This document shows positions 6,855 through 63,440 of a DNA stretch of 64,000 bases, in pieces. This stretch comes from Thiobacillus sp. Its GTDB lineage: Bacteria; Pseudomonadota; Gammaproteobacteria; Burkholderiales; Thiobacillaceae. Numbering within the stretch: position 1 is the first letter of the stretch; the number at the start of each line of letters is the position of its first letter. The translations under genes and the position numbers were made by a program. The DNA lies in the NCBI GenBank assembly GCA_040080645.1, contig JBEBIA010000003.1:11575-75574 (forward strand). Reading direction: 5' to 3'. The notes below the pieces were generated by a model. It ran no database searches and was not told the origin of the DNA. It saw only the letters and a list, made by a program, of their open reading frames with translations.

Positions 6855-7154
6855 ATGCCGTTCGACATCCTGCTGGTTTCCATTTTGCGCACCCTCGTCG
6901 AAGTCGCCGGTTTTGCCTTGCTCGGGCAAGGCGCCCTGGCCGTACTGGCCGGGAAATACCGCGAACAGAACGCTTTCTACCGCGTGCTGCGCGTCGTCAC
7001 CGGCCCGGTGGTGCGCACCGTGCGCTTGATCACTCCACGCCTCGTCGTTGATGCACATATCCCCTACGTGACCTTCTTCGTGCTGTTCTGGCTGTGGATC
7101 ATGCTGGCGCTGGCCAAGCGCCATCTATGCGGCCTGCACGGGCTCGTCTGCTGA
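6855..7154 (+). CDS. Small membrane protein, YggT-like
   Basis: 99-aa hydrophobic ORF with NAFYRVLRVVTGPVVR resembling the YggT NP.Y.....T.P pattern. Confidence 0.6.
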   Translation: MPFDILLVSILRTLVEVAGFALLGQGALAVLAGKYREQNAFYRVLRVVTGPVVRTVRLITPRLVVDAHIPYVTFFVLFWLWIMLALAKRHLCGLHGLVC

Positions 7155-7175
7155 GCCCATCAGCACGGCTTTTTC

Positions 7176-7204
7176 TTGACGGGAAGACGCCAAACCGTTA
7201 AATT
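7176..7204 (+). promoter_or_regulatory. Sigma-70 promoter of tRNA-Phe
   Basis: TTGACG-17 nt-TAAATT followed by a GC-rich discriminator (GCGGCC), 13 nt upstream of the tRNA. Confidence 0.7.
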
Positions 7205-7217
7205 GCGGCCTCTTTTT

Positions 7218-7293
7218 GGCCAGTTAGCTCAGTTGGTAGAGCAGCGGATTGAAAATCCGCGTGTCCTTGGTTCGATTCCGAGACTGGCCACCA
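7218..7293 (+). tRNA. tRNA-Phe (GAA)
   Basis: 76 nt; acceptor GGCCAGT/ACTGGCC, D-loop AGTTGGTA, anticodon stem GCGGA-TTGAAAA-TCCGC, TTCGATT loop, encoded CCA. Confidence 0.98.
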
Positions 7294-7299
7294 GTATTC

Positions 7300-7329
7300 A
7301 AGACGGCTCACAGCAATGTGAGCCGTTTT
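7300..7329. terminator. Terminator after tRNA-Phe (probably bidirectional)
   Basis: AAGACGGCTCAC-AGCAAT-GTGAGCCGTTTT hairpin between convergent genes. Confidence 0.82.
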
Positions 7330-7349
7330 CATTTGGCGACGACGCGTAA

Positions 7350-7736
7350 TCAGGTCGTCGCGGGCAGCCAGGCTTGCAAGGTATGACGCAGGTGAGCTTC
7401 GGCTACGGGGAGTGGCAGCGCAACATCGACGCGCAAGCGGGCGCTCACGGTATCGAGTACGGTCTGGTGCGCGGCCTCATAAAACACCAGAATTTTGGTG
7501 GTGGGCGACGCCTGCGCGGTGGCGAGCAGCGATTCGAGATTGGATAAGCGATCGCGGAAATCGGACTGATGGAAAAAATCAGCGACGAGGACTGCCGGTG
7601 GCGTTTTGCGGACGAACGCAATGGCCTTGCGTTCGGTCCATTCAGCGGCGACCTGGTAGCCGAGTTCCTGATACAGTTTTTTGTAACCCGCCGTGCCGAT
7701 GAAGGCGTTGACCATGAGCAGCGTGGGCGCGCTCAT
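7350..7736 (-). CDS. Conserved hypothetical protein with an atypical receiver (CheY-like) fold
   Basis: Alternating beta/alpha pattern (LLMVN, VLVADFF, ILVFYE, VALPLP); ATGA overlap with the topA stop. Confidence 0.65.
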   Translation of the reverse strand: MSAPTLLMVNAFIGTAGYKKLYQELGYQVAAEWTERKAIAFVRKTPPAVLVADFFHQSDFRDRLSNLESLLATAQASPTTKILVFYEAAHQTVLDTVSARLRVDVALPLPVAEAHLRHTLQAWLPATT

Positions 7737-48538: not shown

Positions 48539-49774
48539 ATGAGTAAGCCCCGCGACCCTAAAAATCTGGTGGTCGGCCTTGATATCGGCACCTCCAAAAT
48601 CGTTTGCATCGTTGCCGAGATCAACGAGGAAGGCACGCTCGACATCATCGGTATGGGCACGCATCCATCCAAAGGTTTGCGGCGTGGCGTGGTGGTCAAC
48701 ATCGAAGCCACGGTCAACGCGATCCAGCGCGCGCTGGAAGAAGCCGAGCTGATGGCCGACTGCAAGATTCGCGAGGTGTACACCGGCATCGCGGGCAGCC
48801 ACATCAAGAGCTTCAACTCGCACGGCATGTTCGCGATCAAGGACAAGGAAATCTCGCAGATGGACGTGGATCGCGTGGTGGATACCGCGCGCGCGGTGAA
48901 CATCCCGACCGACCAGCAAATCCTGCACACCATCCCGCAGGAATTTATCGTCGATGGACAGGAGGACGTGCGCGATCCGCTCGGCATGAGCGCGGTGCGG
49001 CTGGAAGTGAAAGTGCACATCGTCACCGGCGCGGTGTCGGCGGCGCAGAACATCATCAAATGCGTGCGCCGCTGCGGGCTCGAAGTCGGCGATCTGGTGT
49101 TGCAGCCCCTCGCGTCGGCGATGGCGGTGCTGACCGAGGACGAGAAGGAACTCGGTGTGTGTCTGGTTGATATCGGTGGCGGCACCACCGACATCGCGGT
49201 GTTCACTAACGGCGCGATTCGCCACACCGCAGTCATTCCGGTGGCGGGCGATCAGGTCAACAACGACATTGCGGTGGCACTGCGCACGCCGCCGAAGGAA
49301 GCCGAGGACATCAAGATTCAATACGGCTGCGCGCTGCGTCAACTGGCCGACGCGCGCGACATGATCGAAGTGCCCGGCATCGGCGACCGCCCGCCACGCA
49401 CGCTGTCGAAACAGACCTTGGCCGAGTTCATCGAGCCGCGTATGGAAGAGCTGTATTCCTTGGTGCAGGCCGAATTGCGCCGCAGCGGATTCGAGGAGCT
49501 GCTGTCGTCCGGCATTGTGATTACGGGGGGCTCAGCGGCGATGCAGGGCATGGTCGAGCTGGGCGAAGAGGTGTTCCACATGCCGGTGCGTATGGGCTGG
49601 CCGCGTTACGAAGGCGGGCTCGCCGACGTGATGCACAACCCGCGCTATGCCACCTGCATGGGCTTGTTGATGGCAGGCATGGAAGCGCGCGGACGCGATG
49701 CGCCCAAGCTGTCCGGCAACAGCCTCAAGGACATTCTGGAACGCATGAAGGGCTGGTTCAAAGGGAATTTTTGA
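48539..49774 (+). CDS. ftsA: Cell division protein FtsA
   Basis: GLDIGTSK, DIGGGTTD, TGG, PRYATCMGL, C-terminal amphipathic helix. Confidence 0.98.
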   Translation: MSKPRDPKNLVVGLDIGTSKIVCIVAEINEEGTLDIIGMGTHPSKGLRRGVVVNIEATVNAIQRALEEAELMADCKIREVYTGIAGSHIKSFNSHGMFAIKDKEISQMDVDRVVDTARAVNIPTDQQILHTIPQEFIVDGQEDVRDPLGMSAVRLEVKVHIVTGAVSAAQNIIKCVRRCGLEVGDLVLQPLASAMAVLTEDEKELGVCLVDIGGGTTDIAVFTNGAIRHTAVIPVAGDQVNNDIAVALRTPPKEAEDIKIQYGCALRQLADARDMIEVPGIGDRPPRTLSKQTLAEFIEPRMEELYSLVQAELRRSGFEELLSSGIVITGGSAAMQGMVELGEEVFHMPVRMGWPRYEGGLADVMHNPRYATCMGLLMAGMEARGRDAPKLSGNSLKDILERMKGWFKGNF

Positions 49775-49883
49775 TGACGACTTGAGCGGCATCGAAACGG
49801 GATTTGGCGGTTGTGCCGGGGGAACCCGACAAACACACCAATGATTTTGAGTGGTGATTTTTTAGGCAAAAGAGGAGAGCGAT

Positions 49884-51029
49884 ATGTTTGAACTGATGGA
49901 TGTAGACACCCAGGACGCAGTCATCAAGGTGATCGGTGTGGGCGGCTGCGGCGGCAATGCGGTCGATCACATGATTACCTCAGGGTTGAGTGGCGTGGAA
50001 TTCATCGCCATCAACACCGACGCGCAAGCCCTGAAACGCAACCAGGCCAAGCTGCAACTGCAACTCGGCAACGGCGTGACCAAGGGGCTGGGCGCCGGTG
50101 CCAACCCTGACATTGGCCGCGAAGCCGCGCTGGAAGACCGCGAGCGCATCGCCGAGCTGATCGACGGCGCGGACATGCTGTTCATCACTGCGGGCATGGG
50201 TGGCGGCACCGGCACCGGCGCTGCCCCCGTGGTTGCCGAAGTTGCCAAGGAACTCGGCATCCTCACCGTGGCGGTCGTCACCAAGCCCTTCATGTTTGAA
50301 GGCAAGCGCGTGCGTGCCGCCAACGCCGGTATCGAAGCGCTGGGCCGTCATGTTGATTCGCTGATCATTATCCCCAACGAAAAGCTGATGCAAGTGCTGG
50401 GCGACGACGTCTCGATGCTCGACGCCTTCAAGGCCGCCAACAACGTGCTGCACGGTGCTGTCGGTGGCATCGCCGAAGTGATCAACTGCCCGGGGCTGGT
50501 CAACGTCGACTTTGCCGACGTGCGCACCGTGATGAGCGAAATGGGCATGGCGATGATGGGATCGGCTGCGGCCAGTGGTGAAAACCGCGCCCGCATTGCC
50601 GCCGAGCAGGCCGTCGCCAGCCCGCTGCTGGAAGACGTGAATCTCGCGGGCGCACGCGGTGTGCTGGTCAACATCACCGCCTCGTCTACGGTGAAAATGC
50701 GCGAAATCCACGAAGTGATGAGCACCATCAAGGGCTTCACCGCAGAAGAAGCCACCGTCATCGTCGGTCAGGTGCTCGACGACAGCATGGAAGACAGTCT
50801 GCGCGTCACCATGGTGGCCACCGGTCTGGGCAGCCCCGTTGCACGGCAAAGCCCGAAGCCGATGCAGATCATTCGCACCGGAACGGACGACATGCCGATG
50901 ATGGTGGGTGGCGATGAAGAACTGCCCAGCGTGATGACCACCCGTCGTAGCCGCACCATTCAGGCCATGTCGGATTCCGGCATCGACACGCTGGATATTC
51001 CGGCGTTTCTGCGCAAGCAGGCAGACTGA
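49884..51029 (+). CDS. ftsZ: Cell division protein FtsZ
   Basis: [17 protein letters not shown]-terminal [11 protein letters not shown]. Confidence 0.99.
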
Positions 51030-51111
51030 CCGGTGAACCGTTGACGCGGGAACGGGTCAGACCGGTTCCCGCAGATTCGGCTCGCCTGCCGTGAACGGCT
51101 AAAATAACGGC

Positions 51112-52026
51112 ATGATCAAGCAACGTACTCTTAAAACCCCGGTCAAGGCGACCGGGGTTGGCCTGCATTCCGGCGTCAAGGTCGAGGTGACCTTGCGCCC
51201 GGCCGCCCCCGATTCCGGCATTGTGTTCCGCCGCATGGATCTCGATCCGCCTGCCGAACTCAAGGCCGACCCCTATCTTGTTACCGACACCCGCCTGTGT
51301 TCCATGCTGGAATCCGGCGCGGCCAAAGTGTCTACCGTCGAGCACCTCATGTCCGCGCTGGCGGGCCTGGGCATCGACAACCTGCTGGTCGATCTCACCG
51401 GTCCCGAGATTCCCATCATGGACGGCTCGTCCGCGCCCTTCGTGTTTTTGCTGCAATCGGCGGGCATCGTCGAGCAGGACGCAGCCAAGCAATACGTGCG
51501 CATCAAACAGCCCATCGAAGTGAAAGATGGCGACAAGTGGGCGCGCTTCGTGCCGCACCACGGCTTCAAGGTCGAATTTACCATCGACTTCAAGCACCCC
51601 GTGTTCGACAAGAGCGGCAAAACCGTCAGCATCGACTTCGCCGACACCGCCTACACCAAAGAAGTGTCGCGTGCGCGCACCTTCGGTTTCATGCACGAGG
51701 TCGAATACCTGCGCAACAACGGCCTCGCCCTTGGCGGCTCGCTCGACAACGCCATCGTCATGGACGAATACCGCGTGCTCAACCAGGATGGCCTGCGCTA
51801 CGACGACGAATTCGTCAAACACAAAGTGCTCGACGCCATTGGTGACCTGTATCTGCTGGGGCATCCCATCATCGGCGCCTTCGAAGCCTACAAATCCGGC
51901 CACGCGCTCAACAACGCCCTGCTGCGCGAACTCGCGCAACATCAGGACGCCTGGGAAATGGTCAGCTTCACCCAGGAGCAGGACGTGCCTGCCGCTTTTC
52001 TGCGCCTGCATCCGCTCACGGCATGA
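51112..52026 (+). CDS. lpxC: UDP-3-O-acyl-GlcNAc deacetylase
   Basis: QRTL...[28 protein letters not shown]. Confidence 0.98.
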
Positions 52027-52205
52027 TCGTTCTGCGCCTGCTGATCGTCGCAGTCCTTGTTTCCGTGGCGGCGCTGGGTCTGGCGTGGTTATTGAGCGGC
52101 GACCGAAAGTATCTGGGTTATATCAGCCGCGTGCTGCGCTTCGCGCTTATCGTCGGCGTGATCGCGGCGCTGTTTTATGTGGTGGAGCGGCTGGTGTTGC
52201 GGTGA
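52023..52205 (+). CDS. Small two-TM membrane protein (60 aa)
   Basis: Two hydrophobic helices around SGDRKY; ATGA overlap with lpxC. Confidence 0.7.
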
Positions 52206-52220
52206 GGGCAGAAATAATCG

Positions 52221-52266
52221 TGTCTGACCCTATTCTCTCTGTTTGTCTGACCCTATTCTCTCTGTT
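52221..52266 (+). repeat. Perfect 2 x 23-bp tandem repeat
   Basis: TGTCTGACCCTATTCTCTCTGTT at 52221-52243 and 52244-52266. Confidence 0.95.
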
Positions 52267-52316
52267 TTATTCCGTCACGTGACGGCTATTTAACGTTAGC
52301 CTGCGGGGAGTCACTT

Positions 52317-53630
52317 TTGTCAGACACTGAGTTGAAACTCAAATTTTGGCGCGGAGACCAAATTGGCGCTGAGAGATTGGCAGCGACAATTCTTCACATC
52401 GATGGTTTCTCATCCGTTGACCCGCAATGCCCGCTTGGTGGCCCCGATGGATTGAAGGACCTGCTTTGTGAAAAGAATAGCTGGCGCTATGTTGCCGCTG
52501 CTTATTTCCCTACCGCTGAGAAAGATTTCAAAGCTGTTCAAGATAAATTCATTCACGACCTCGCTGGTGTTACAAAGAACTCTGCTCAAGGAATTGTATT
52601 TCTCACGAACCAGTCGCTAACGCCAAGTCAGCGCGAAGCTCTTTCTGAATTGGCTGACGCCAATGGGCATAAAGCAATTTTGTACCACCTAGAACGACTG
52701 CGGTCTTTACTTGACAGCCCCTCAGGTTACGGCGCCAGATTGGAATTCCTTGATATAGACATGGCCAGAGAAGAGCAATTAAGCTTCTTCTCGCAATGGA
52801 ATAGATCATTCACAGATCAACTTCAGGCACATGGCCTAATGATCATCAGAGAAATATCAAAGAAGATCGATTTACTCGCAGGTACAACGGAAAAGTTCGG
52901 GCTTCGCGTTGATGAAATGAGCGAGTTTGTTGCCCAAACTCGCTCATTTCTTGATTCCGTAAAAGCACCAAGTAACAAAAGAAACTTTGCCCAATCGGTA
53001 CACGATTTCTCAACCAAAGAGTTGACAGTTAACGACCTGTGTATGTTGCATCGTGCCCTGCTATTTGATGACTCAATTGGATTACACGTTGGCAAACTAC
53101 GGCAAGATGTTATCTGGATTGGAGGTCCAGGTGCAAACCTAGCTACAGCACAGTTTGTCCCGCCAGCACCAGAACTTGTACCTGAGTTACTTGAAGCAAT
53201 GTTGTCTGAGTGGAGAGATAACTTCGACAACCTCGACAAGGCAACAGACAAAGACAAAATTACCGCAATCGCAAAATTTCATCACAGGTTTCTTAATATT
53301 CATCCGTTCATGGATGGAAATGGACGCATTGCTCGCTTTTTATTAACGCAACATGCTCATGAACTTCTCAAGCAAAAACAACGAATCATTATTGAGGATC
53401 GTCGCCCATACTTCGATGCGCTCTCACTTGCCGATAAAGGTGATTACTCGGCTCTTGAAACTCAAATAACACAAGCAATATTTGGTGTTGAGTTTGTGGC
53501 GGGTTCGCCATGTCAGATGTCAGGACAGCAATGCCCTGCATGTAAGGAGGGTGTCATGGATACCGACATAAGTGGAACAGGTGTTAAGTGTTCATCCTGC
53601 GGTTTATTTATTCCTGCTGTATTGCCATGA
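52317..53630 (+). CDS. Fic-domain protein with an N-terminal restriction-endonuclease-like domain and a C-terminal Zn ribbon
   Basis: Canonical Fic motif HPFMDGNGRIAR; N-terminal PLGGPDGLKD...FLTNQ; C-terminal CPAC-x16-CSSC; TTG start after GGAG; AT-rich. Confidence 0.85.
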   Translation: MSDTELKLKFWRGDQIGAERLAATILHIDGFSSVDPQCPLGGPDGLKDLLCEKNSWRYVAAAYFPTAEKDFKAVQDKFIHDLAGVTKNSAQGIVFLTNQSLTPSQREALSELADANGHKAILYHLERLRSLLDSPSGYGARLEFLDIDMAREEQLSFFSQWNRSFTDQLQAHGLMIIREISKKIDLLAGTTEKFGLRVDEMSEFVAQTRSFLDSVKAPSNKRNFAQSVHDFSTKELTVNDLCMLHRALLFDDSIGLHVGKLRQDVIWIGGPGANLATAQFVPPAPELVPELLEAMLSEWRDNFDNLDKATDKDKITAIAKFHHRFLNIHPFMDGNGRIARFLLTQHAHELLKQKQRIIIEDRRPYFDALSLADKGDYSALETQITQAIFGVEFVAGSPCQMSGQQCPACKEGVMDTDISGTGVKCSSCGLFIPAVLP

Positions 53631-53634
53631 ACAA

Positions 53635-53706
53635 GGCTAACTTGGCGCTCAAGTGGGACGCCAAAAATGCTGCGCATTTTCGTCGCCCCTTAGCTCTACG
53701 TTGGGC
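53635..53706 (+). other. attC recombination site (72 bp)
   Basis: R'' GGCTAAC; L'' GCTCAAG pairing with L' CTTAGC with an extrahelical C; inner stem AAAATGC/GCATTTT; R' GTTGGGC. Confidence 0.9.
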
Positions 53707-53789
53707 ATCACAAGTAGAATTTTGCAATTGGAAGCCAATCACCATGACAGCAGCCAAAGGAACGCTCAAGACCTGCGCTAAAGGACGCG

Positions 53790-53957
53790 CCTACTGTGAT
53801 TTCAGGCAAGCACAGCAATGCCGCGCTGATGCCGACGGAAGACTGGAATGCAATTCAGGAAACCCTGTATTTGCTGGCCGTGCCGGGGGTGCGTGAGTCC
53901 ATCAAGGCGGGCATGGCGGAGCCGCTCGCAAAAAGTGCGCGGGCGCTCAAGTGGTAA
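53790..53957 (+). pseudogene. Truncated Phd/YefM-type antitoxin
   Basis: Frame reads PTVISGKHSNAALMPTEDWNAIQETLYLLAVPGVRESIKAGMAEPLAKSARALKW*. The N-terminal DNA-binding part is missing (in-frame TGA at 53745) and no intact toxin follows. Confidence 0.8.
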
Positions 53958-53999
53958 CTTGGGTGGTTGCTGGGTCATTTGACGTTTCCCTCGTTTGAT

Positions 54000-55784
54000 A
54001 TGCATCACGCTGACACCACAGTATTGCTTGCCTGTCTGAAAGACGACCTGTCGATTGAGCAGGGCGTTCTCACGGATGCACTGAACATCGACCAATACGA
54101 TCTGCTTTACCCGCAGATTGAGCAGCGCATGTGGCAGGGCGACGACGCTGCCTTTGCGCACTGGCTGGGGCGATATCAGGCGCTGTTCCGCGAGCAGCAG
54201 GCCTTGATTGACGCTTCGGACCTGCGCGAACAACACCATTTCATCATCGGTATACCGGTCGCGGGGCGTCCGGCGCATCTGCGCCATTGCCTCGACAGCA
54301 TCCTTCAGCAGTGTCACCTGTTTGGCTATGGCGGTCAGGATGCCGGCGGACGCTACGCCAAATTCACCGTGATCGTGTCGGAAGACAGCCGTGACGCTGA
54401 ACATCGAGCGCAGCACCAGGCACTCGTCGCTGAGTATTGCGACAAGGGTTTGTCCGTCGTGCACTACGATCTGCCCGAGCAAGTTCAGTTGTTGCAAGCT
54501 ATTCCAGATACTGAACGCGCACAGCTCGGCAGGCTGCTCACCACCCAGCCCGCCGACCGTTTTTATCAGAAAGGCCAGGCGGCAAACCGCAACCTCTGCT
54601 ACCTGAAAATGCGCCAGCTCACGCAGGACACGGCACGCACGCTCTATTATCTGGTGGACAGCGATCAACTGTTTCTGGTGAACCGCCAGACCGCCGAGGG
54701 CGAGCGCGCCTATCCGGCGCTGAATTATTTCTACACGCTCGACCGTATATTTCGAACACAGCCCGTCTCGGTACTGACAGGCAAACTGGTCGGTGACCCG
54801 CCCGTTTCCCCCGCCGTCATGGCCGCGAATTTTCTCGATGACGTCACGGCGTTTTTGCAGCGCATCGCCACGCTTGATTCCCATGCCGCGTGCAGCTTCC
54901 ACCCGCAGAATGTGCCGCTGCCGGACGACGCGGCCTACCACGACCTGGCCAGCCGCTTCGGCTTCGATGCGCCGACCCAAGCTGTCGACTACCGCTGCCC
55001 CCTCGAGGGCGCACACGATCACGCCGCCTGCCTGTCGACATTTTCAGCGCGCCTGCACAACTTCTTTTTCGGCGAACATCTCACGCGCAAAACCGGCTTC
55101 CGCTACGCCGGGTCCTCGCTGGCCCTCAGCCCCGCGCGAACCATTTATCCCGGCAACACCATCGTCAATTTTGAGGGCCTGAAAACCATCATTCCCTTCG
55201 GTCACCTGCGCCTGCGCATGTCCGGCCCCACCGCCGGGCGGCTGATCCAGGCCGAAATCGGCAGCCGTTTCGCGTCGGTCAATCTACCCATGCTGCACAA
55301 GCGTACGATTGCCGACGCGCAGGATGCGTTTCGCCCCGGCGTCGAACAACACAATGCGGCAATTGATATCTCGGACGAATTCGAGCGCCAGTTTTTTGGC
55401 GATCTGATGCTGTTCTCTGTTGTGGCCTGGCTGAAAGACCACCGCCTCGATGATCTCAGCGACAGCACCCAGCTGGACACCGTGGTGGAGCAGGTGGAAG
55501 CCGGATTGCTAGTGGACTATGCAGACAAGCATCGCGCCGTGAACGACCGCCGCGAAGCGCTCGAACGCTGGCTGGATGCCCGGCCCGGCTGGCCCGACCC
55601 GTCAACGCATGCCCGGCTCACGCAGTTTCTGCGTAACATCGCCGCCAATTTTGGCGACGCCTCGCCCGCCTGGACACAGATTCAATCGGCTGCGCATCGT
55701 CAGCAGCGCCGCCAGCAAATTGTCGATGCGCTGCGGCATTACCGACGCGAGCGCGACGCGTGGGATCGTCTGTTTAGTCAGTAA
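54000..55784 (+). CDS. Hypothetical protein with GT-A (glycosyltransferase 2-like) motifs
   Basis: FIIGIPVAGRP..L..CLDSI, VIVSEDS, GQAANRN, YYLVDSD (DxD). Start uncertain (53967 TTG or 54000 ATG). Confidence 0.7.
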   Translation: MHHADTTVLLACLKDDLSIEQGVLTDALNIDQYDLLYPQIEQRMWQGDDAAFAHWLGRYQALFREQQALIDASDLREQHHFIIGIPVAGRPAHLRHCLDSILQQCHLFGYGGQDAGGRYAKFTVIVSEDSRDAEHRAQHQALVAEYCDKGLSVVHYDLPEQVQLLQAIPDTERAQLGRLLTTQPADRFYQKGQAANRNLCYLKMRQLTQDTARTLYYLVDSDQLFLVNRQTAEGERAYPALNYFYTLDRIFRTQPVSVLTGKLVGDPPVSPAVMAANFLDDVTAFLQRIATLDSHAACSFHPQNVPLPDDAAYHDLASRFGFDAPTQAVDYRCPLEGAHDHAACLSTFSARLHNFFFGEHLTRKTGFRYAGSSLALSPARTIYPGNTIVNFEGLKTIIPFGHLRLRMSGPTAGRLIQAEIGSRFASVNLPMLHKRTIADAQDAFRPGVEQHNAAIDISDEFERQFFGDLMLFSVVAWLKDHRLDDLSDSTQLDTVVEQVEAGLLVDYADKHRAVNDRREALERWLDARPGWPDPSTHARLTQFLRNIAANFGDASPAWTQIQSAAHRQQRRQQIVDALRHYRRERDAWDRLFSQ

Positions 55785-56514
55785 ACGACGCTGCTGCGTG
55801 CTTGATCAACTGCTGGCGGCAATCGTCATAGACCTGCTGCGCGCGCGCCAGCGATGCTGCGTCCAGCGTGATTTCGGCGTAGTCGCTTGCGGTGCGGATC
55901 ACTTCTCCGGCTGCCATCGCGGACGAAGTGTCGCCCGCGCCCGCGATCCCGGTTTTTGCAAAGGTCTGATAACGCGGCTGCAGCGGCGAACCCAGCTGCA
56001 ACCAGTCGCCCAGCGCCGCCAGCGTGCGCGTTGGTGCCGTACAAATCAGCGCGGCATCAAAATAGCGGTAGCGCTCCGCATGCCGTGCGGCAAACCCCGC
56101 AAGCCATTGCAGCCGCTCGATGTAATACGTCGTCGCTCCCACCGGATCGGCATAGGGATCGCTGACTGCCTTTCGCGCAAACAGGCTGACGATGCTTTTC
56201 AGCGTCGACTCCGGGGGGCGCAACGCAATCAGCACCTGCGTAGGGTGCGGATCGCAAGCGGCCAAATCCAGTGCGTAATCGTTGTGCAGCAGTTTATCGA
56301 ACAGGTAGCGCCCACCAGGTTTCAGCCTGTCGTGCGCGGCATAGCGCCGTAGCTGTTCTTCCAGATCGGTAGTCGATGCATACGACAGATGCATCTCGTA
56401 ATAGCCATTGATTTCAGGATGCGAACCCAGAAGATGCCCCACCAGGCTGGTGTAGGCGCGCATATGGCTGAGCAGGAAAATGCGCGCGAGCGGGAGAGGC
56501 CGGTTTGATTCCAT
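55774..56514 (-). CDS. Sulfotransferase-fold protein
   Basis: IFLLSHMRAYTSLVGHLLGSHPEI.GYYE (5'-PSB-like region), DKLLH, LRPPESTLKSI (3'-PB-like). Confidence 0.7.
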   Translation of the reverse strand: MESNRPLPLARIFLLSHMRAYTSLVGHLLGSHPEINGYYEMHLSYASTTDLEEQLRRYAAHDRLKPGGRYLFDKLLHNDYALDLAACDPHPTQVLIALRPPESTLKSIVSLFARKAVSDPYADPVGATTYYIERLQWLAGFAARHAERYRYFDAALICTAPTRTLAALGDWLQLGSPLQPRYQTFAKTGIAGAGDTSSAMAAGEVIRTASDYAEITLDAASLARAQQVYDDCRQQLIKHAAASFTD

Positions 56515-56540
56515 GCGTTCATATTATTGCAGGCTTCCTC

Positions 56541-58739
56541 TCAATCCTGCTTCTGCACCCAGAACTGATACATGCCAAAGAAGGTATCGGGATTGTCTGC
56601 TTCGAACGCGTGCCATTGCGTCAGATCGGTGGCAGCCGGGTCATCCGGAAAGCGTTGCCGGTAGGCATTCAACACCTCCGGCTCGGTTTCAAACCCGAGG
56701 AAATTCAGCTGGTGCTCGCGCAGAAATTCGGCAATCGCGGGCAGCGTGAGCTGGTGTTCCTGAACATGGAACAGCAGATCGCGACAGCTGCTGGTGCTGT
56801 AAAAATCAGTCACTGCCAGCAGATTGCCCAGGGCTGAAGGGTCGGGCAGCGCCATCAAATCCTGTCGGCAACGCCGGATGCCGTCGGCGTCGGTTGCGTA
56901 CCCATTGTCGGCGATGAACTGGCGAATCCGCACGACGTGCTGCCGTGCGAGCGCACTGTAAAATCCCAGACACATCAGGCCGCCCGGCCGCAGCAGCGAG
57001 AGCAGCGTGCGCCAGCCTTGCCATGGATCGGCCAGATGGTGCAGCACGCCGATGGATTCGATCACGTCAAAATCGCGCCCCAGCGCCCCGAGCTTCAGCA
57101 GGTCGCCATGCATATATTCCACATTGCCCAGACCCATTTCGTGCGTTTTTCGCTTGGCATACGCCAGGCTGCCGAGACTCAGGTCGATCGCCAGGATGCG
57201 TGCGTCAGGCAGCGTCCGCGCGCGGTTGGTCGAATGCTGGCCAGTGCCGCAGCCTGCAATCAGTATGTCCCGGCGCGGGGCCACTGCGTCTTCGCGAAAA
57301 CCGGCGAGCGGAAATTTCTGTTTGAGCAGGGTGTCGATGTCGAAGGTCGTGTCGACCGGAGACGCCTTGATCCAGCGCGGGTAAGGGTTCTCTTCGTATT
57401 GCTGCTGAACCTGGCGCGACACCGCGTTTTCAATTGTGCTCAGCGCGGGAATACTCGGGCGCACCGTCTGCTCGACCGAGGGCTCGACGAGTTGCTGCAC
57501 CAGCACCGCAGCCACTTCAGCGGGCCACGGGCGTTCCAGCAGGCGCGACGCCGAAGGAAGCGCGCTCAGCGGCAGATAGGTCGCCAGCGCAAGCGGCCAG
57601 ATCGCGGGCACTTCCGCCTGCGTGGCCAGCGCGTTTTCCAGGGCTTCTGCCAGCAAGCCGGCCTGCTGAATTTCGGCCTCGTCCAGCGCAAACACATACT
57701 CGTTAATGAAACACTGCTGGGCCAGCGCACTGTGGAAATTCAGCGAAGCCCCCACGTCAGCCTCAAGCAGAATCGCCCGCCGGGCCAGCGTCAGCAGGCG
57801 CTCCAACCCCACATCGCACACCGGCGTTGCCGTGAGCAGGGCACACAACAGCGCGTCCGCCCCCAGCGTATCCAGATCCCGAGCGTCAAACCCAGCCTGC
57901 GCAGAGGCCCGGTGGGGCCAGGTCGCTTCAGCGCGTGCCAGATAATCGCCGACTTGCGGGTCAAGCTTGATGAAATCCGTGCTGACATGGGCCAGCTCGA
58001 CCGGCCGGTCCCAGGGCGCGTTCAGCGCACGCACCAGCAGCTCGCGCACCTGAGGATTCGTCTGCGTGAAACGCAGGCGCTTGATGCAGGCGGCGAAAAT
58101 TCGCGTCGCCCGCACGCCCTCCTGGATCGGCAGCGCGCGCATGACACATTCCAGCGCCGCAAGCGATTCGCCTCGGGTGTTGAGCAATGCGGCCAGGTTT
58201 TCCAGCGCATCGGCATCGTCGGGCGCGTGCGCCAGTGCATTGCGGAAACACGCTTCGGCTTCATCAAACCGTTGCCGTGATTGCAGTAGTGCGCCCAGAT
58301 TGTTGTGCGCGCGGACGTAATCCGGCGTCAGTGCCAGCGCCCGGCGATAACTGATTTCGGCATCGTCGAGCGCCCCCCGGTCCTGCAGCGCCACGCCCAG
58401 ATTGCTGTGCGCCTGCGCATCGTTCGGGTTGATGGCCAGCGCCCGCCGACAACTGGCCTCGGCCTCCTCGTGCCGCCCCAGACTGTTGAGCGTAATCCCG
58501 AGATTGTTGTGCGCCTCGGCATCCCGGGGCAGCAGCGTCGCCGCCTTGCGCATCGGGCGCAGCGCGTCCGCATTCCGCCCCAGCTGCATGAGCGACACCC
58601 CCAGCAGCTTCCAGCTCATCCCGTGCCGGGGGAAACGAAGCGTCAACGCCCCGGCCTGCTCAGCCGCCGCCTCCAGCCGATGGTCGTTGAACATCGCGAT
58701 GACCGCGTTGAATTCCTGGGGGCTGGGCTGAATGTTCAT
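56541..58739 (-). CDS. TPR-repeat class I SAM-dependent methyltransferase
   Basis: About five TPRs (AHNNLG, AHSNLG), QQYEENPYPRW, ILIAGCGTGQH, IESIGVLHHL, DLLFHVQEH; start set at MNIQP (58739). Confidence 0.85.
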   Translation of the reverse strand: MNIQPSPQEFNAVIAMFNDHRLEAAAEQAGALTLRFPRHGMSWKLLGVSLMQLGRNADALRPMRKAATLLPRDAEAHNNLGITLNSLGRHEEAEASCRRALAINPNDAQAHSNLGVALQDRGALDDAEISYRRALALTPDYVRAHNNLGALLQSRQRFDEAEACFRNALAHAPDDADALENLAALLNTRGESLAALECVMRALPIQEGVRATRIFAACIKRLRFTQTNPQVRELLVRALNAPWDRPVELAHVSTDFIKLDPQVGDYLARAEATWPHRASAQAGFDARDLDTLGADALLCALLTATPVCDVGLERLLTLARRAILLEADVGASLNFHSALAQQCFINEYVFALDEAEIQQAGLLAEALENALATQAEVPAIWPLALATYLPLSALPSASRLLERPWPAEVAAVLVQQLVEPSVEQTVRPSIPALSTIENAVSRQVQQQYEENPYPRWIKASPVDTTFDIDTLLKQKFPLAGFREDAVAPRRDILIAGCGTGQHSTNRARTLPDARILAIDLSLGSLAYAKRKTHEMGLGNVEYMHGDLLKLGALGRDFDVIESIGVLHHLADPWQGWRTLLSLLRPGGLMCLGFYSALARQHVVRIRQFIADNGYATDADGIRRCRQDLMALPDPSALGNLLAVTDFYSTSSCRDLLFHVQEHQLTLPAIAEFLREHQLNFLGFETEPEVLNAYRQRFPDDPAATDLTQWHAFEADNPDTFFGMYQFWVQKQD

Positions 58740-59063
58740 GGGCAATTTCCGGTCCGGGGGGCGATTGAACCATTCTCGGGGAAACTGCGTTCGGCATATC
58801 CAAGGAACAGCGCCCAGGTCAGGCCGCTGTTCTGCGTTTAGGGAAACCCGATTGGGTTCGGGAATCCGAAAATCCCGCACTGGTGGGATGTAGTAATGAC
58901 TTGCCCCCCGTTATCGGGTCTGGTCAAGCTTCAGATTGGGCGGCCTTGTGCGAAGCTCGTCCGGTCAGACATAAAACGGCGTTTTTTACCCGACAGCCTG
59001 TCGGGTATGCGCTGCGAAAAAATCCATCCGTTTTATTTGTTCCGCTATTTCGAAAGCAGACCA

Positions 59064-59518
59064 CTAAAGCTGCTTGACAATAAAGGAATACTCCGCCGGG
59101 TCAACCGGGGTAATCGATAAGCGGTTGCCGCGTTGCAGGATGCGCATATTGGCCAGCGCAGGATAGGTGCGAATTTCAGCCAGCGGCATCAGGCGGGTTT
59201 TCTTCACCAGTTTGACATCGACGTTCATCCAGCGCGGATTCTCCAGCGTGGCCTTGGGATCGAAGTATTTATGTTTGGGATCAAACTGGAAAGCGTCGGG
59301 ATACGCCAGCGTGCTCACGACCGCCAACCCGGCTATCCCCGGCTCGGCGCACGATGAATGATAAAACAGCACTTTGTCACCGACCCTCATCTGATCGCGC
59401 ATGAAATTGCGCGCCTGATAATTGCGGATGCCATACCAGGCAACGCTTTGATCTGGAAAGCCCGCGAGATCGTCAATGCTGACGTCGCTCGGCTCCGATT
59501 TCATGAGCCAGTAGCGCA

Positions 59519-59519
<1 letters not shown>
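59064..59519 (-). CDS. EVE domain protein
   Basis: YWLMKSEP, W.GIRNYQARN, FYHSSC, RGNRLSITPV; coupled to argB by a TGATG overlap. Confidence 0.93.
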
Positions 59520-61119
<1,600 letters not shown>

Positions 61120-61123
<4 letters not shown>

Positions 61124-61377
61124 AATGGCTCGTGACCTGTAAACAGAACACGGAACTTGCATCGCGCGCCATGGACGAAGGTCTGTCCTATAGCGAGCGT
61201 GTCACGATGCAGCTACACCTGCTGATTTGTAACAATTGCGCGCGGCTGAACCAGCATTTACAAATGATGCGAACGCTGTTTCGCCAGGAAACTGAATCCA
61301 GTGATGTGTCACCCGGGCTGGCACCCGCTGCCCGGCAACGCATCAAAACCGAATTGCAGAATAAGCTCGATTCCTGA
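61120..61377 (+). CDS. zf-HC2 (ZAS) anti-sigma factor, soluble
   Basis: TCK...HLLICNNC (C...HxxxCxxC), no TM; GTG start overlapping the sigma stop. Confidence 0.85.
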
Positions 61378-61435
61378 GCCTGCATGAGGCCGACTTCCGG
61401 CCATTGTCAACGTAGTTCATTTAGGAGAGAACACT

Positions 61436-61813
61436 ATGTCGAAGAAAACCCTGATCGCCGCTGCTGTCGGCACCGCGTTTGCCGCCACCTTGGCCGCCCC
61501 GCTGGCCTCGGCTGCCGAGAATCCCTTTGCACTGTCCGGTCTGGATAAAGGCTACATGGTCGCCGAGCATAACGACGGTCATAGCAAAATGATGAAAGAA
61601 GGCAAGTGCGGTGAAGGTAAATGCGGTGCGGCCAAGAAAAAGGATGGCGACTGCGGCCACAAGGCCAAGGACGGCAAGTGCGGTGCCGAAGGCAAATGCG
61701 GCCATAGCAAAACCAAGGATGGCAAATGTGGTGAAGGTAAGTGCGGCGGCGACAAAACCAAAATGAAAGACGGCAAGTGCGGCGAAGGTAAATGCGGCGG
61801 CACGAAGAAGTAA
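61436..61813 (+). CDS. hvfA: HvfA-like secreted Cys-repeat RiPP precursor
   Basis: Sec signal (…PLASA), AENPF, nine GxCG motifs (EGKCG/DGKCG/DGDCG); strong RBS AGGAG. Confidence 0.88.
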   Translation: MSKKTLIAAAVGTAFAATLAAPLASAAENPFALSGLDKGYMVAEHNDGHSKMMKEGKCGEGKCGAAKKKDGDCGHKAKDGKCGAEGKCGHSKTKDGKCGEGKCGGDKTKMKDGKCGEGKCGGTKK

Positions 61814-61825
61814 GCTCATAACGAC

Positions 61826-62695
61826 ATGAGTTTCCCGCACCCGACCGGTGCGGGGCTGGGTTTTCGGCGAGAGTTAATTCCCGCGCTGAAAACCCGTGTC
61901 CCCGACGCCATTGAGTTTTTTGAGATCGCGCCCGAAAACTGGATTGATCTGGGTGGCGCATATGGCCGCGATTTACGCGGGTTTACCGAACGCTATCCGT
62001 TTGTCTGTCATGGCTTGTCGCTGTCGATTGGCAGCCCGGCTCCGCTCGACGAAATGCTGCTGCATAAAACACGGCAATTCATGGATGCGCATGGCATTCA
62101 GCTTTTCACCGAACATTTGTCGTATTGCTCCGACGACGGACATCTCTACGACCTGCTGCCGATTCCTTTTACCGAAGACGCAGTGAAATACGTTGCTGCT
62201 CGCGTCCGACGCGCGCAGGACATTCTTGAGCGGCGCATCGCCATCGAAAACGCGTCGTACTACACGCCGTCGCCGATTGCCGAGATGGACGAAAGCACGT
62301 TCATCCGCGCGATTCTGGCTGAGGCCGACTGCGATTTGCACCTCGACGTGAACAATGTTTACGTCAATAGCGTGAACCACCGTTTCGATCCACTCGAATT
62401 CATTCGCAGCATGCCGACCGAACGCATTGTGTACCTGCACATGGCCGGGCATTACAACGAAGCCGATGACCTGATTGTGGACACGCACGGTGCTGACGTA
62501 ATTGAGCTGGTATGGGCGCTGCTTGACGCCACCTACCGCCTTCACGGTGTTGCACCCACTTTGCTGGAACGTGATTTCAACATTCCACCGCTGGCCGAAC
62601 TGGTACACGAAGTCGAGCGAATCGCGCAGATTCAGCGTCCGCATCACCTGCCGCAGATTCGTGCATCCCATGCAGACATCCGTCAAGCCGTCTGA
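61826..62695 (+). CDS. hvfB: MNIO family (DUF692) multinuclear non-heme iron oxidase, HvfB-like
   Basis: [59 protein letters not shown]. Confidence 0.93.
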
Positions 62696-63440
62696 ACGTC
62701 TACCCTTTCAAACGTATCAGTACGCGTTTACCGCGCATTTGCGCGATCCGCACGCGCATCCGCGCCCAGCGGGGATAGAAGCGCGCCGGATCAAAATCTA
62801 CACCGAGTTGCTGTATAACAACGTTGAAGGCTTTTTGCTCGCCTGTTTTCCGGTGTTGAAGCAGATGCTCGGGGTACGCAAATGGTCGCGCATGGTACGT
62901 GCATTTTTTGCCACGCATCATAGCCACACACCCTACTTCCGGCAGATTCCAGACGAATTCATCCAGTTTTTGCAAAACGAATGGACGCCACCCGACGCCT
63001 ACCCGTCTTATCTTCTGGCGCTGGCGCATTACGAATGGATCGAGTTGGTGCTGTCGGTCTCCAACCGCAGCGCGGCGCGCGCTGCGAATGCGGCGGGCAA
63101 TCTGCTCACCGGTGTTCCGGTACTGAATCCGGTGCTGGCCAATTTACGCTACGACTGGCCGGTACATCGCATCGCCCCGCGCCGTGTGGTCAAGCCTTCT
63201 GAAACGTTTTTACTGGTGTTCCGCGACGCGGATGATCAGGTTCAGTTCACTGAAATCAATGCGTTCACTGCACGCTTGATTACCTTGCTTGAACCCGCCA
63301 CGCTCACGGGCATAGCAGCGCTGGCGCACATTGCCGCAGAAAGTCGCCACCCGAACCCGGCGCTGATTCAGCGGGCGGGCGGCGCGTTACTGGCCGATTT
63401 ACAGACCCGGGGGGTGGTGCTGGGCGCGGTCGCGGAATAA
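62670..63440 (+). CDS. hvfC: DUF2063 RiPP-recognition partner protein, HvfC-like
   Basis: [20 protein letters not shown]...[22 protein letters not shown]. Confidence 0.88.

Follow-up and report, generated by a model that had tools for sequence, protein, structure and literature searches.

A Mrr-like/Fic fusion protein on an integron cassette of Thiobacillus sp. as a candidate single-gene anti-phage or toxin protein

Fic proteins can act as single-gene anti-phage defence systems, as described for SoFic (10.1101/2022.05.11.491447). AMPylation of EF-Tu by SoFic depends on dimerisation (10.64898/2026.07.09.737422), and the toxicity of the protein is regulated (PMC12249575). Compact defence genes, fusions of the Mrr_cat domain included, abound in integron cassettes (10.1101/2024.07.02.601686). 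We analysed a 64-kb stretch of Thiobacillus sp. DNA from a drinking-water metagenome (contig JBEBIA010000003.1; the whole stretch is referred to as the window) and a gene within it for a 437-aa protein that joins a Mrr-like restriction-endonuclease fold to a Fic domain. The gene is a genuine integron cassette. Its membership of a large, unnamed protein family that occurs in bacterial defence islands makes the protein a credible candidate for an anti-phage or toxin gene product. We consider it an evenly balanced question whether the locus is a promoterless cassette encoding a self-contained, auto-controlled Fic-type nucleoside monophosphate (NMP) transferase that likely serves in defence of the abortive-infection type. 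The Mrr-like N-terminal module is uncharacterised and widespread, while single-gene Fic conflict proteins are of a kind that is already known.

The protein consists of four parts: an N-terminal restriction-endonuclease fold (the N-domain), a long helix, a Fic domain and a CxxC...CxxC tail. The open reading frame (ORF) and this architecture had been put forward in the original prediction, which was made by reading the sequence alone, and were recovered at the exact coordinates with all quoted residues present. The features of the gene and protein are as follows.

52317–53630, + strand: ORF for the 437-aa protein, TTG start and TGA stop (ORF list; 399 homologues)
52305–52310, + strand: Shine-Dalgarno-like GGGGAG, 6 nt ahead of the TTG start (direct sequence reading)
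52317–52760, + strand: N-terminal Mrr-like restriction-endonuclease-fold domain, residues 1–148 (model, Foldseek, motif alignment, conservation)
52767–52916, + strand: long helical linker, residues 151–200 (AlphaFold2 secondary structure)
52857–52874, + strand: degenerate motif resembling the class II inhibitory helix (alpha-inh), S181-K-K-I-D185-L (phmmer alignment to CdFic S31NKIE35G)
53022–53501, + strand: Fic domain core, residues about 236–395 (Pfam PF02661, E=1.8e-17; PDB matches by sequence and fold: FICD, CdFic, SoFic, M. marinum Fic)
53301–53336, + strand: Fic catalytic motif H329-P-F-M-D-G-N-G-R-I-A-R340 (sequence and homologue alignment)
53511–53615, + strand: Zn-ribbon-like tail, residues 399–433, with C399, C406, C409, C425 and C428 (Cys conservation, model strands)

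A search of 5.8 billion proteins yielded 399 homologues at E≤1e-3, the best of which match the window protein over 100% of its length at 80% identity. Their sources are Acidithiobacillus, Ramlibacter, Duganella, Pedobacter and many metagenomes, and their existing annotation is only 'Fic family protein' or 'fido'. About 60% are 430–445 aa long and about 40% are roughly 394 aa long, the latter lacking the C-terminal tail; homologues of 434–441 aa cover 99–100% of the window protein and share the N-terminus MSDTE. The full-length AlphaFold2 model had a mean predicted local distance difference test score (pLDDT) of 79 and a predicted template modelling score of 0.73. A fold search with this model matched only Fic structures in the PDB, the whole architecture being present in no entry. 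Exact look-ups of the window Fic protein and of the LpxC protein encoded upstream gave no record, and a literature search found no paper describing a Mrr-like–Fic fusion or a Fic cassette.

The Fic domain is the sole Pfam domain above threshold (residues 236–344; 64.4 bits against a cut-off of 24). Its flap reads G259-x-L-R262...W267-I-G...P282-P283, and the catalytic motif conforms to HxFx(D/E)GNGRxxR, the AMPylation-competent type rather than the Doc kinase type. H329, P330, D333, G334, N335 and G336 are invariant in 116 aligned homologues; the motif, earlier described as fully active, is complete, and no catalytic residue is lacking from the core. The NMP transferase is most likely an AMPylase. 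By sequence the nearest solved relatives are Mycobacterium marinum Fic (7cb8), Clostridium difficile Fic (CdFic, 4x2e), FICD and SoFic, with E values of 3.5e-11 to 4e-6.

The best PADLOC match of the window protein is SoFic (Millman et al. 2022; PADLOC PDLC03963; E=1.1e-19). Both proteins are encoded by one gene on mobile or defence DNA, and both have an HxFxDGNGRxxR core with the position of the inhibitory helix N-terminal to it. However, the match covers only positions 91–210 of the 361-position SoFic profile (33%), the score against the NCBIfam SoFic model is 31.6 bits where the cut-off is 550, and the window protein has neither a Fic_N Pfam match nor the C-terminal winged-helix domain. In their place come the Mrr-like N-domain, a helix of 50 residues and the Zn-ribbon-like tail, and the inhibitory Glu is replaced by Asp. 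The PADLOC candidates PDC-S04 and PDC-S24 contain Fic profiles that match at E values of 1e-18 to 1e-17, likewise over the Fic core only. The class II Fic proteins (CdFic 4x2e, FICD/HYPE 4u04 and M. marinum Fic 7cb8; E 3.5e-11 to 2e-8) are closest among solved structures also by fold and share the flap and core, but their flanking domains are entirely different. With only 33% of the SoFic profile covered, the window protein is not a SoFic orthologue, nor is it a Fic protein of strict class I, II or III.

The original prediction had stated that no obvious inhibitory motif of the type (S/T)xxxE(G/N) follows the Fic motif. This was correct, as a regular-expression search over the protein found no class III motif [ST]xxxE[GN] after residue 340, but a degenerate alpha-inh-like motif, SKKIDL, is located ahead of the core. 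It aligned with good posterior probability (HMMER) to the inhibitory S31-N-K-I-E35-G of CdFic, and the protein therefore has the class II helix position with a degenerate motif. The class II definition of (S/T)xxxE(G/N) N-terminal to the core (Engel et al. 2012) does not apply to it, since the Glu is D185 and the next residue is L, S or A; the position of the helix itself is conserved. Among the 116 homologues, residue 181 is Ser in 85 and Gly in 23, and residue 185 is Asp in 94 (81%), Glu in 15 (13%) and Ala in 5 (4%).

The C-terminal CPAC...CSSC tail noted earlier is present as C406-P-A-C409 and C425-S-S-C428, and none of the four Cys varies among those homologues, roughly 70 of 116, in which the tail is present. 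It is absent in about 40% of the Fic homologues. The AlphaFold2 model gives it three short strands, and the Pfam model Zn_ribbon_3 matches at a sub-threshold 11.8 bits (cut-off 27).

Two other types of Fic protein were considered for the window gene and rejected: a Doc-type kinase, as the motif is GNGR rather than the Doc consensus, and a class I toxin-antitoxin module of the FicT/FicA or VbhT/VbhA type, as there is no partner gene. No ORF for a small adjacent alpha-inh protein was found between the preceding 60-aa ORF and the Fic gene, nor inside the cassette. An antitoxin gene was found neither beside the Fic gene in the window nor in four of the homologous loci (L002, L003, L005 and L088), and none of the 8 other loci sampled has a conserved neighbour gene, barring an overlapping 100-aa ORF in one of them (L086).

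The Fic ORF contains, at 52914–52950 (residues about 200–211, in the low-confidence linker), a perfect inverted repeat of 16 bp whose loop is 5 nt long. Chance alone would give about 3e-6 such repeats in a gene as long as this one. The repeat is missing from 8 homologous genes, the 80%-identical one included, and could be a lineage-specific mRNA hairpin or a product of quasi-palindrome correction.

Residues 1–160 were modelled separately with AlphaFold2, and the model (pLDDT 89) shows an alpha-beta-beta-beta-alpha-beta core. Foldseek searches of the PDB with the N-domain returned the N-terminal nuclease of Avs4, EcoT38I, MspJI, Cap4, Can2, Rpb5 and MUS81, with E values of only about 1e-3 and query-normalised TM-scores (TMq) up to 0.58. 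In BFVD there were 9 matches at E≤1e-3, the best at 4.5e-6, with a root mean square deviation of about 4 Å over 130–150 columns; those with names are 'Restriction endonuclease' or Rpb5. The per-domain searches thus returned the restriction-endonuclease-like fold that had been proposed for this part of the protein. No Pfam or NCBIfam model covers the N-domain, and a profile search of its family against the PDB sequences gave matches for Fic only and none for the N-domain.

The motifs of the N-domain were aligned manually, by eye, with those of the E. coli Mrr catalytic domain (N-domain/Mrr): AE19RL/FEVIV, DGF/LGY, GGPDGLKD48/GDGGIDG, YVAAAYF/YVQAKRW, KFIHDL/AFYGAL, GIVFLTNQSLT/GVFITTSGFT and HLERL/DGERL. 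With Mrr_cat (PF04471; E. coli Mrr, the Avs4 N-terminus and the integron-cassette protein 'Epona') the N-domain shares the fold and the motif order E...G(Y/F)...GGxDGxxD...(Y)V...(F)...G(I)xF(I)T. As GGPDGLKD corresponds to GDGGIDG and YVAAAYF to YVQAKRW, the (D/E/Q)xK position is A61-x-Y63, in line with the AAAYF that had been remarked upon there. The relationship to Mrr rests on this manual alignment together with Foldseek, the profile match being weak: hhalign of the family against the single sequence of E. coli Mrr aligned the KF...TNQ segment only, with a short, low-probability match of consistent topology. Weak Pfam Mrr_cat matches were obtained for 4 of 149 relatives of the N-domain (best E 1.3e-4), but not for the window protein.

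Those 149 representatives, which are at 50% identity or less to one another, and the 116 Fic homologues were used to assess conservation. The (D/E/Q)xK of beta-3 is missing in all 149, the corresponding positions being A/G/S-x-Y/F/H. D48, K77 and D81 are invariant in both alignments; N98, Q99 and E126 do not vary in the Fic homologues and reach at least 92% conservation across the family; and E19, D44, K47, H124 and R127 are conserved in over 90% of the representatives. In terms of the PD-(D/E)xK and Mrr_cat families the N-domain has the fold and lacks the catalytic D...(D/E/Q)xK, though D48 is kept, and in comparison with Mrr_cat the invariant K77 and D81 are new. The original prediction had considered the domain possibly nuclease-dead. 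The canonical QxK is indeed lost in the entire family, but as a polar constellation is kept family-wide, deadness is not established. The conserved polar residues could form a relocated active site or a ligand site, and K77 and D81 could rebuild a nuclease site; the pattern is equally compatible with a dead domain and with a non-canonical site, active or ligand-binding.

The conserved residues bear directly on the best surviving alternative, which we consider unlikely, namely that the protein is a dual effector. The N-domain would then be a non-canonical, active PD-(D/E)xK-type nuclease or phosphoesterase with the Lys moved to K47 or K77 and with D44, D48, D81 and E19 as acids; it would be the common effector of the family, and the C-termini (Zn ribbon, repeats, Fic) would be sensors, regulators or second effectors. 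In the restriction-endonuclease superfamily, active-site residues are well known to migrate, and the structural neighbours Avs4, Cap4 and Can2 are active nucleases that serve as defence effectors. The three invariant and seven highly conserved polar positions (E19, K47, N98, Q99, H124, E126 and R127) are what favours such a site in the sequences themselves. Moreover, two large sub-families carry only a Zn ribbon or short repeats past the helix, so the N-domain is the only plausible enzyme there. Against this, the beta-3 (D/E/Q)xK is A-x-Y/F in every member, and Fic and MazF act as effectors, not as sensors, in every characterised system.

The extent of the N-domain family was determined by a HMMER search of residues 1–160 against 1.84 billion representatives. 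The search returned 1010 proteins at E≤1e-3, 251 of them at E≤1e-30, corresponding to about 1000 clusters at 50% identity spread over Proteobacteria, Firmicutes, Bacteroidota and others. Among the best 150 of the 1010, the N-domain starts within the first 20 residues in nearly all, and the total length ranges from 119 to 614 aa. A helical segment directly follows the N-domain in all members examined. The sequences C-terminal to it fall into at least 30 unrelated clusters. By Pfam, the C-terminus is Fic in 42 of the 149 representatives and PemK/MazF in 2; EAL, N6_Mtase and a beta-helix each occur as single cases, and many others have no Pfam domain. A Zn-ribbon-only cluster of 14 members (HxCSxCGFG...CPKCGN) and a cluster of 29 members with 3–5 repeats of about 35 aa (VPLxELxEFxxIL; VPLxELxEF-repeat cluster) are two large sub-families, represented by P0145, P0153 and their relatives; neither gave a Pfam or PADLOC match. 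The N-domain of the window protein and those of ten non-Fic relatives matched no PADLOC model, and for the window protein PADLOC recognises the Fic core only, in keeping with the earlier remark that the architecture was not recognised from a named system.

The N-domain plus helix is thus a widespread module with interchangeable C-termini, among them two classical growth-arrest toxins, Fic and MazF, with no separate antitoxin gene beside them. We tentatively suggest, and hold it to be possible rather than probable, that the degenerate Mrr-like N-domain and helix define an unnamed, widespread class of single-gene modular immune proteins. In these a common head without a canonical nuclease site would read an infection signal and control interchangeable toxic C-termini (Fic, MazF and others), the window cassette being the Fic-armed form spread by integrons. 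The same logic of a toxin and its controlling or sensing domain in one polypeptide is found in CapRel SJ46, a fused toxin-antitoxin that acts as a single-chain sensor-effector in defence. As in the window protein there is no separate antitoxin; the domains, however, are unrelated, and a sensing role of the N-domain is presumed.

Two scans of viral contigs found no relative. Three motif matches in IMG/VR contigs (L171–L173) are prohead-protease-like phage proteins carrying GVPFGGPDGGKD, which is nearly the same string as the most conserved N-domain loop, PLGGPDGxKD. As tblastn showed no wider similarity around it, the likeness is probably a coincidence.

The original prediction also held the gene to be cassette-borne, and canonical attC and G|TTRRRY boundaries were found around it. 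The features of the cassette are as follows.

52296–53700, + strand: integron gene cassette of 1405 bp with one ORF and its attC (boundaries, GC content, end of host homology)
52295–52301, + strand: core site GTTAGCC, with the crossover between G52295 and T52296 (common to homologous loci)
53635–53706, + strand: attC site of 72 nt, beginning four bases past the stop codon (coordinates, fold, homologous attCs)
53635–53641, + strand: attC R'' GGCTAAC, followed by the spacer TTGGC
53647–53653, + strand: attC L'' GCTCAAG, followed by a 35-nt imperfect hairpin
53689–53694, + strand: attC L' CTTAGC, followed by the spacer TCTAC
53700–53706, + strand: attC R' GTTGGGC
52265–52295, + strand: left junction of about 31 nt, TTTATTCCGTCACGTGACGGCTATTTAACG, ending at the recombination G (common to metagenome contigs)

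The GC content of the cassette is 0.457, compared with 0.618 upstream and 0.611 downstream; across 52–54 kb it is 0.48–0.49 and on both sides about 0.61. The first six bases of the cassette are TTAGCC, and GTTAGCC at 52295 is complementary at 7 of 7 positions to the cassette's own R'' GGCTAAC at 53635, which gives the G|TTRRRY boundary. Pairing between L' and L'' of the attC leaves a single G of L'' extrahelical on the bottom strand, and this strand folds with −16.3 kcal/mol (z = −2.8). The segment ACGTTAGCC lies 15–25 nt ahead of the start codon in the window and in three homologous loci (L002, L003 and L089), beyond which the upstream sequences are unrelated. One of these, L002, carries a homologous attC; the attCs of L003, L088 and L089 are different, though just as canonical, each beginning with GG(C/A)TAAC straight after the stop codon. 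In total, 5 of the 9 sampled loci are cassettes. In Ramlibacter (L003) the Fic cassette opens an array of three or more serial cassettes with near-identical attC ends, and one cassette of this array, two cassettes away, encodes a PIN-domain protein. Only one attC of its type is present in the window, and the locus resembles a lone cassette or attC.

At least 4 contigs in the Logan data of runs X1 and X2 have the left junction (52265–52300; about 33 nt ending in GTTAG) in common and diverge past GTTAG (at 52297, 52299 and 52300) into GGGCCGCTATCC, GCGATCACTCCC and others. Such a pattern would result if several cassettes followed one and the same attC-type 3' end. The segment 52265–52295 acts like the 3' end (L'-spacer-R') of a site of the attC type, one that also heads other sequences in the metagenome, and implies further cassettes behind the same end elsewhere in the genome or community. 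As reads easily span a 33-nt repeat, the adjacency of lpxC and the cassette is probably real.

The host DNA on the left (48539–52205) encodes ftsA, ftsZ and lpxC, followed by a 60-aa hydrophobic ORF. FtsA was confirmed by Pfam; ftsZ and lpxC were named from reading the translations. The 60-aa ORF is kept in relatives whose LpxC is 89–93% identical, and synteny with these stops at its end, at about 52206, the genes downstream being different in every one of them. The homology ending at this point and the sequences differing thereafter, the site is a variable junction. An empty site was sought among the same LpxC relatives, but with different downstream genes in each there was no clean before/after comparison.

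The neighbours of the homologous genes provided the check on a link to conflict and defence, which the original prediction had proposed, and they point the same way: relatives adjoin CBASS, BrxC/TerB, AbiC, AIPR, Shedu and type I restriction-modification genes, and the N-domain is also fused to MazF. In Duganella (L001) putAbiC, a helix-turn-helix/peptidase-M78 gene and an AAA ATPase lie near the Fic homologue. Another locus (L086) has a CD-NTase and a patatin (CBASS), TerB, BrxC/BrxD, a DEAD/ResIII helicase and two integrases, and in a third (L178; 24 contigs, one locus) AIPR is nearby. The N-domain–MazF protein of Bacillus is encoded between Shedu and a type I restriction-modification system, with no MazE-like ORF or other antitoxin gene beside it. 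A 290-aa N-domain protein of Desulfosporosinus is found among genes for helicases, NERD, Mrr_cat and PLD-DUF3427.

These neighbourhoods also bear on the possibility that the protein is an ordinary regulatory Fic enzyme and no immune gene, performing reversible AMPylation and de-AMPylation of a host protein in stress or growth control and mobile by chance. Such bifunctional regulators are known among class-II-like proteins, FICD and SoFic (10.64898/2026.07.09.737422), the gene is tolerated without an antitoxin, and several homologues are flanked by housekeeping genes only. We nevertheless regard this explanation as quite improbable, as most sampled loci are in cassettes or defence islands, the same N-module is fused to MazF within a Shedu/type I restriction-modification island, and low GC content and a patchy distribution point to horizontal spread. 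That the cassette is a selfish, stabilising toxin module is very doubtful. On this view it would be kept because losing it, or an imbalance of the protein, does harm, much as toxin-antitoxin cassettes stabilise the arrays of chromosomal integrons. In favour are the toxin-type domains, the truncated YefM antitoxin gene directly downstream and the PIN-domain cassette of the Ramlibacter array. Against it, no partner gene is conserved and a single polypeptide has no separately degradable antitoxin, which makes classical post-segregational killing impossible.

For the reading of the locus as an auto-controlled Fic enzyme in abortive-infection-type defence, the order of the parts would be a regulatory or sensor head, then the helix, then the effector. 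The cassette would be expressed by read-through of the upstream transcript of lpxC and the 60-aa ORF. In the resting cell the Fic active site would be held off by the Asp-containing alpha-inh helix, by the geometry of the N-domain and long helix, or by both. The N-domain, optionally helped by the Zn ribbon, would read a signal (foreign or damaged nucleic acid, a nucleotide or a phage protein are candidates) and alter the oligomeric state or the helix register. The ensuing conformational change would allow NMP transfer onto an essential host protein, for which EF-Tu and targets of the GyrB/ParE type are precedents, and the modified protein would cause growth arrest and, in this way, abortive-infection-like defence.

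Several points weigh against this reading. The conserved polar residues could make the N-domain an enzyme rather than a sensor, and the assignment of the alpha-inh motif comes from one pairwise HMMER alignment in a region modelled with a pLDDT of 44–72. Some homologues lie between housekeeping genes with no defence context (L002, L005 and L088), and the case for defence draws on neighbours at a handful of loci, not on statistical enrichment. In L086 a 100-aa ORF without Pfam match (7147–7449) lies upstream of the Fic gene and overlaps its start by 4 nt. Its product is a possible partner or antitoxin, one missing from the cassette forms. A crude regular expression for box II of tyrosine recombinases revealed no integron integrase motif in the window. 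Finally, a promoter/terminator scan showed no promoter-like site upstream of the Fic gene, nothing scoring above shuffles, and expression of the cassette is therefore unproven.

A number of further observations were made on the DNA around the cassette. The ORFs further upstream than ftsA, from about position 34 kb of the window on, look like the rest of a dcw cell-division cluster. Between the 60-aa ORF and the cassette junction there is a perfect 23-bp tandem duplication, TGTCTGACCCTATTCTCTCTGTT twice (52221–52266; 0 expected in shuffles). At 29 nt ahead of the crossover G its position resembles that of attI direct repeats, and there is no adjacent integrase gene. A variant of the 52221–52266 stretch with different upstream sequence is present in the same metagenome. 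A search of 51500–54500 with Rfam gave no match.

On the other side, between the cassette attC and the next gene of native GC content, the truncated Phd/YefM antitoxin gene (53796–53957) covers positions 34–71 of the 74-position profile, the N-terminal third being missing, and has no toxin partner. An exact 13-nt repeat, GGCGCTCAAGTGG, occurs at 53644–53656 (attC spacer/L'') and at 53942–53954 (3' end of the yefM remnant), and TAACTTGG adjoins both copies in permuted order; the repeat may have been left behind by a second attC, now decayed, or by recombination. The downstream genes (53967–63440) have native GC content and include those for a 605-aa protein without Pfam match, a weak sulfotransferase-like protein, a protein of 779 aa with tetratricopeptide repeats and a methyltransferase domain, and an amino-acid kinase. 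They also include a modification enzyme of the MbnB/TglH/ChrH type, as found for ribosomally synthesised and post-translationally modified peptides (RiPPs), followed by a DUF2063/NGO1945-type gene, a pair that suggests a possible RiPP locus.

If the reading of the Fic cassette as a defence gene is true, the protein would be a second, architecturally distinct Fic-based immune protein besides SoFic. As all parts are in a single chain, the control of AMPylation by the Asp-for-Glu alpha-inh motif, the N-domain, the helix and the Zn ribbon would be directly dissectable. A large uncharacterised family would be named for which there is neither a Pfam nor a PADLOC model, and whose domain swapping and neighbours mark a role in conflict, and the cassette would be a further case of integrons spreading compact defence or toxin genes, here among Betaproteobacteria from an environmental source, drinking water. 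Should the gene have no role in defence, it would still offer a tractable case of a restriction-endonuclease fold re-purposed upon loss of the catalytic QxK.

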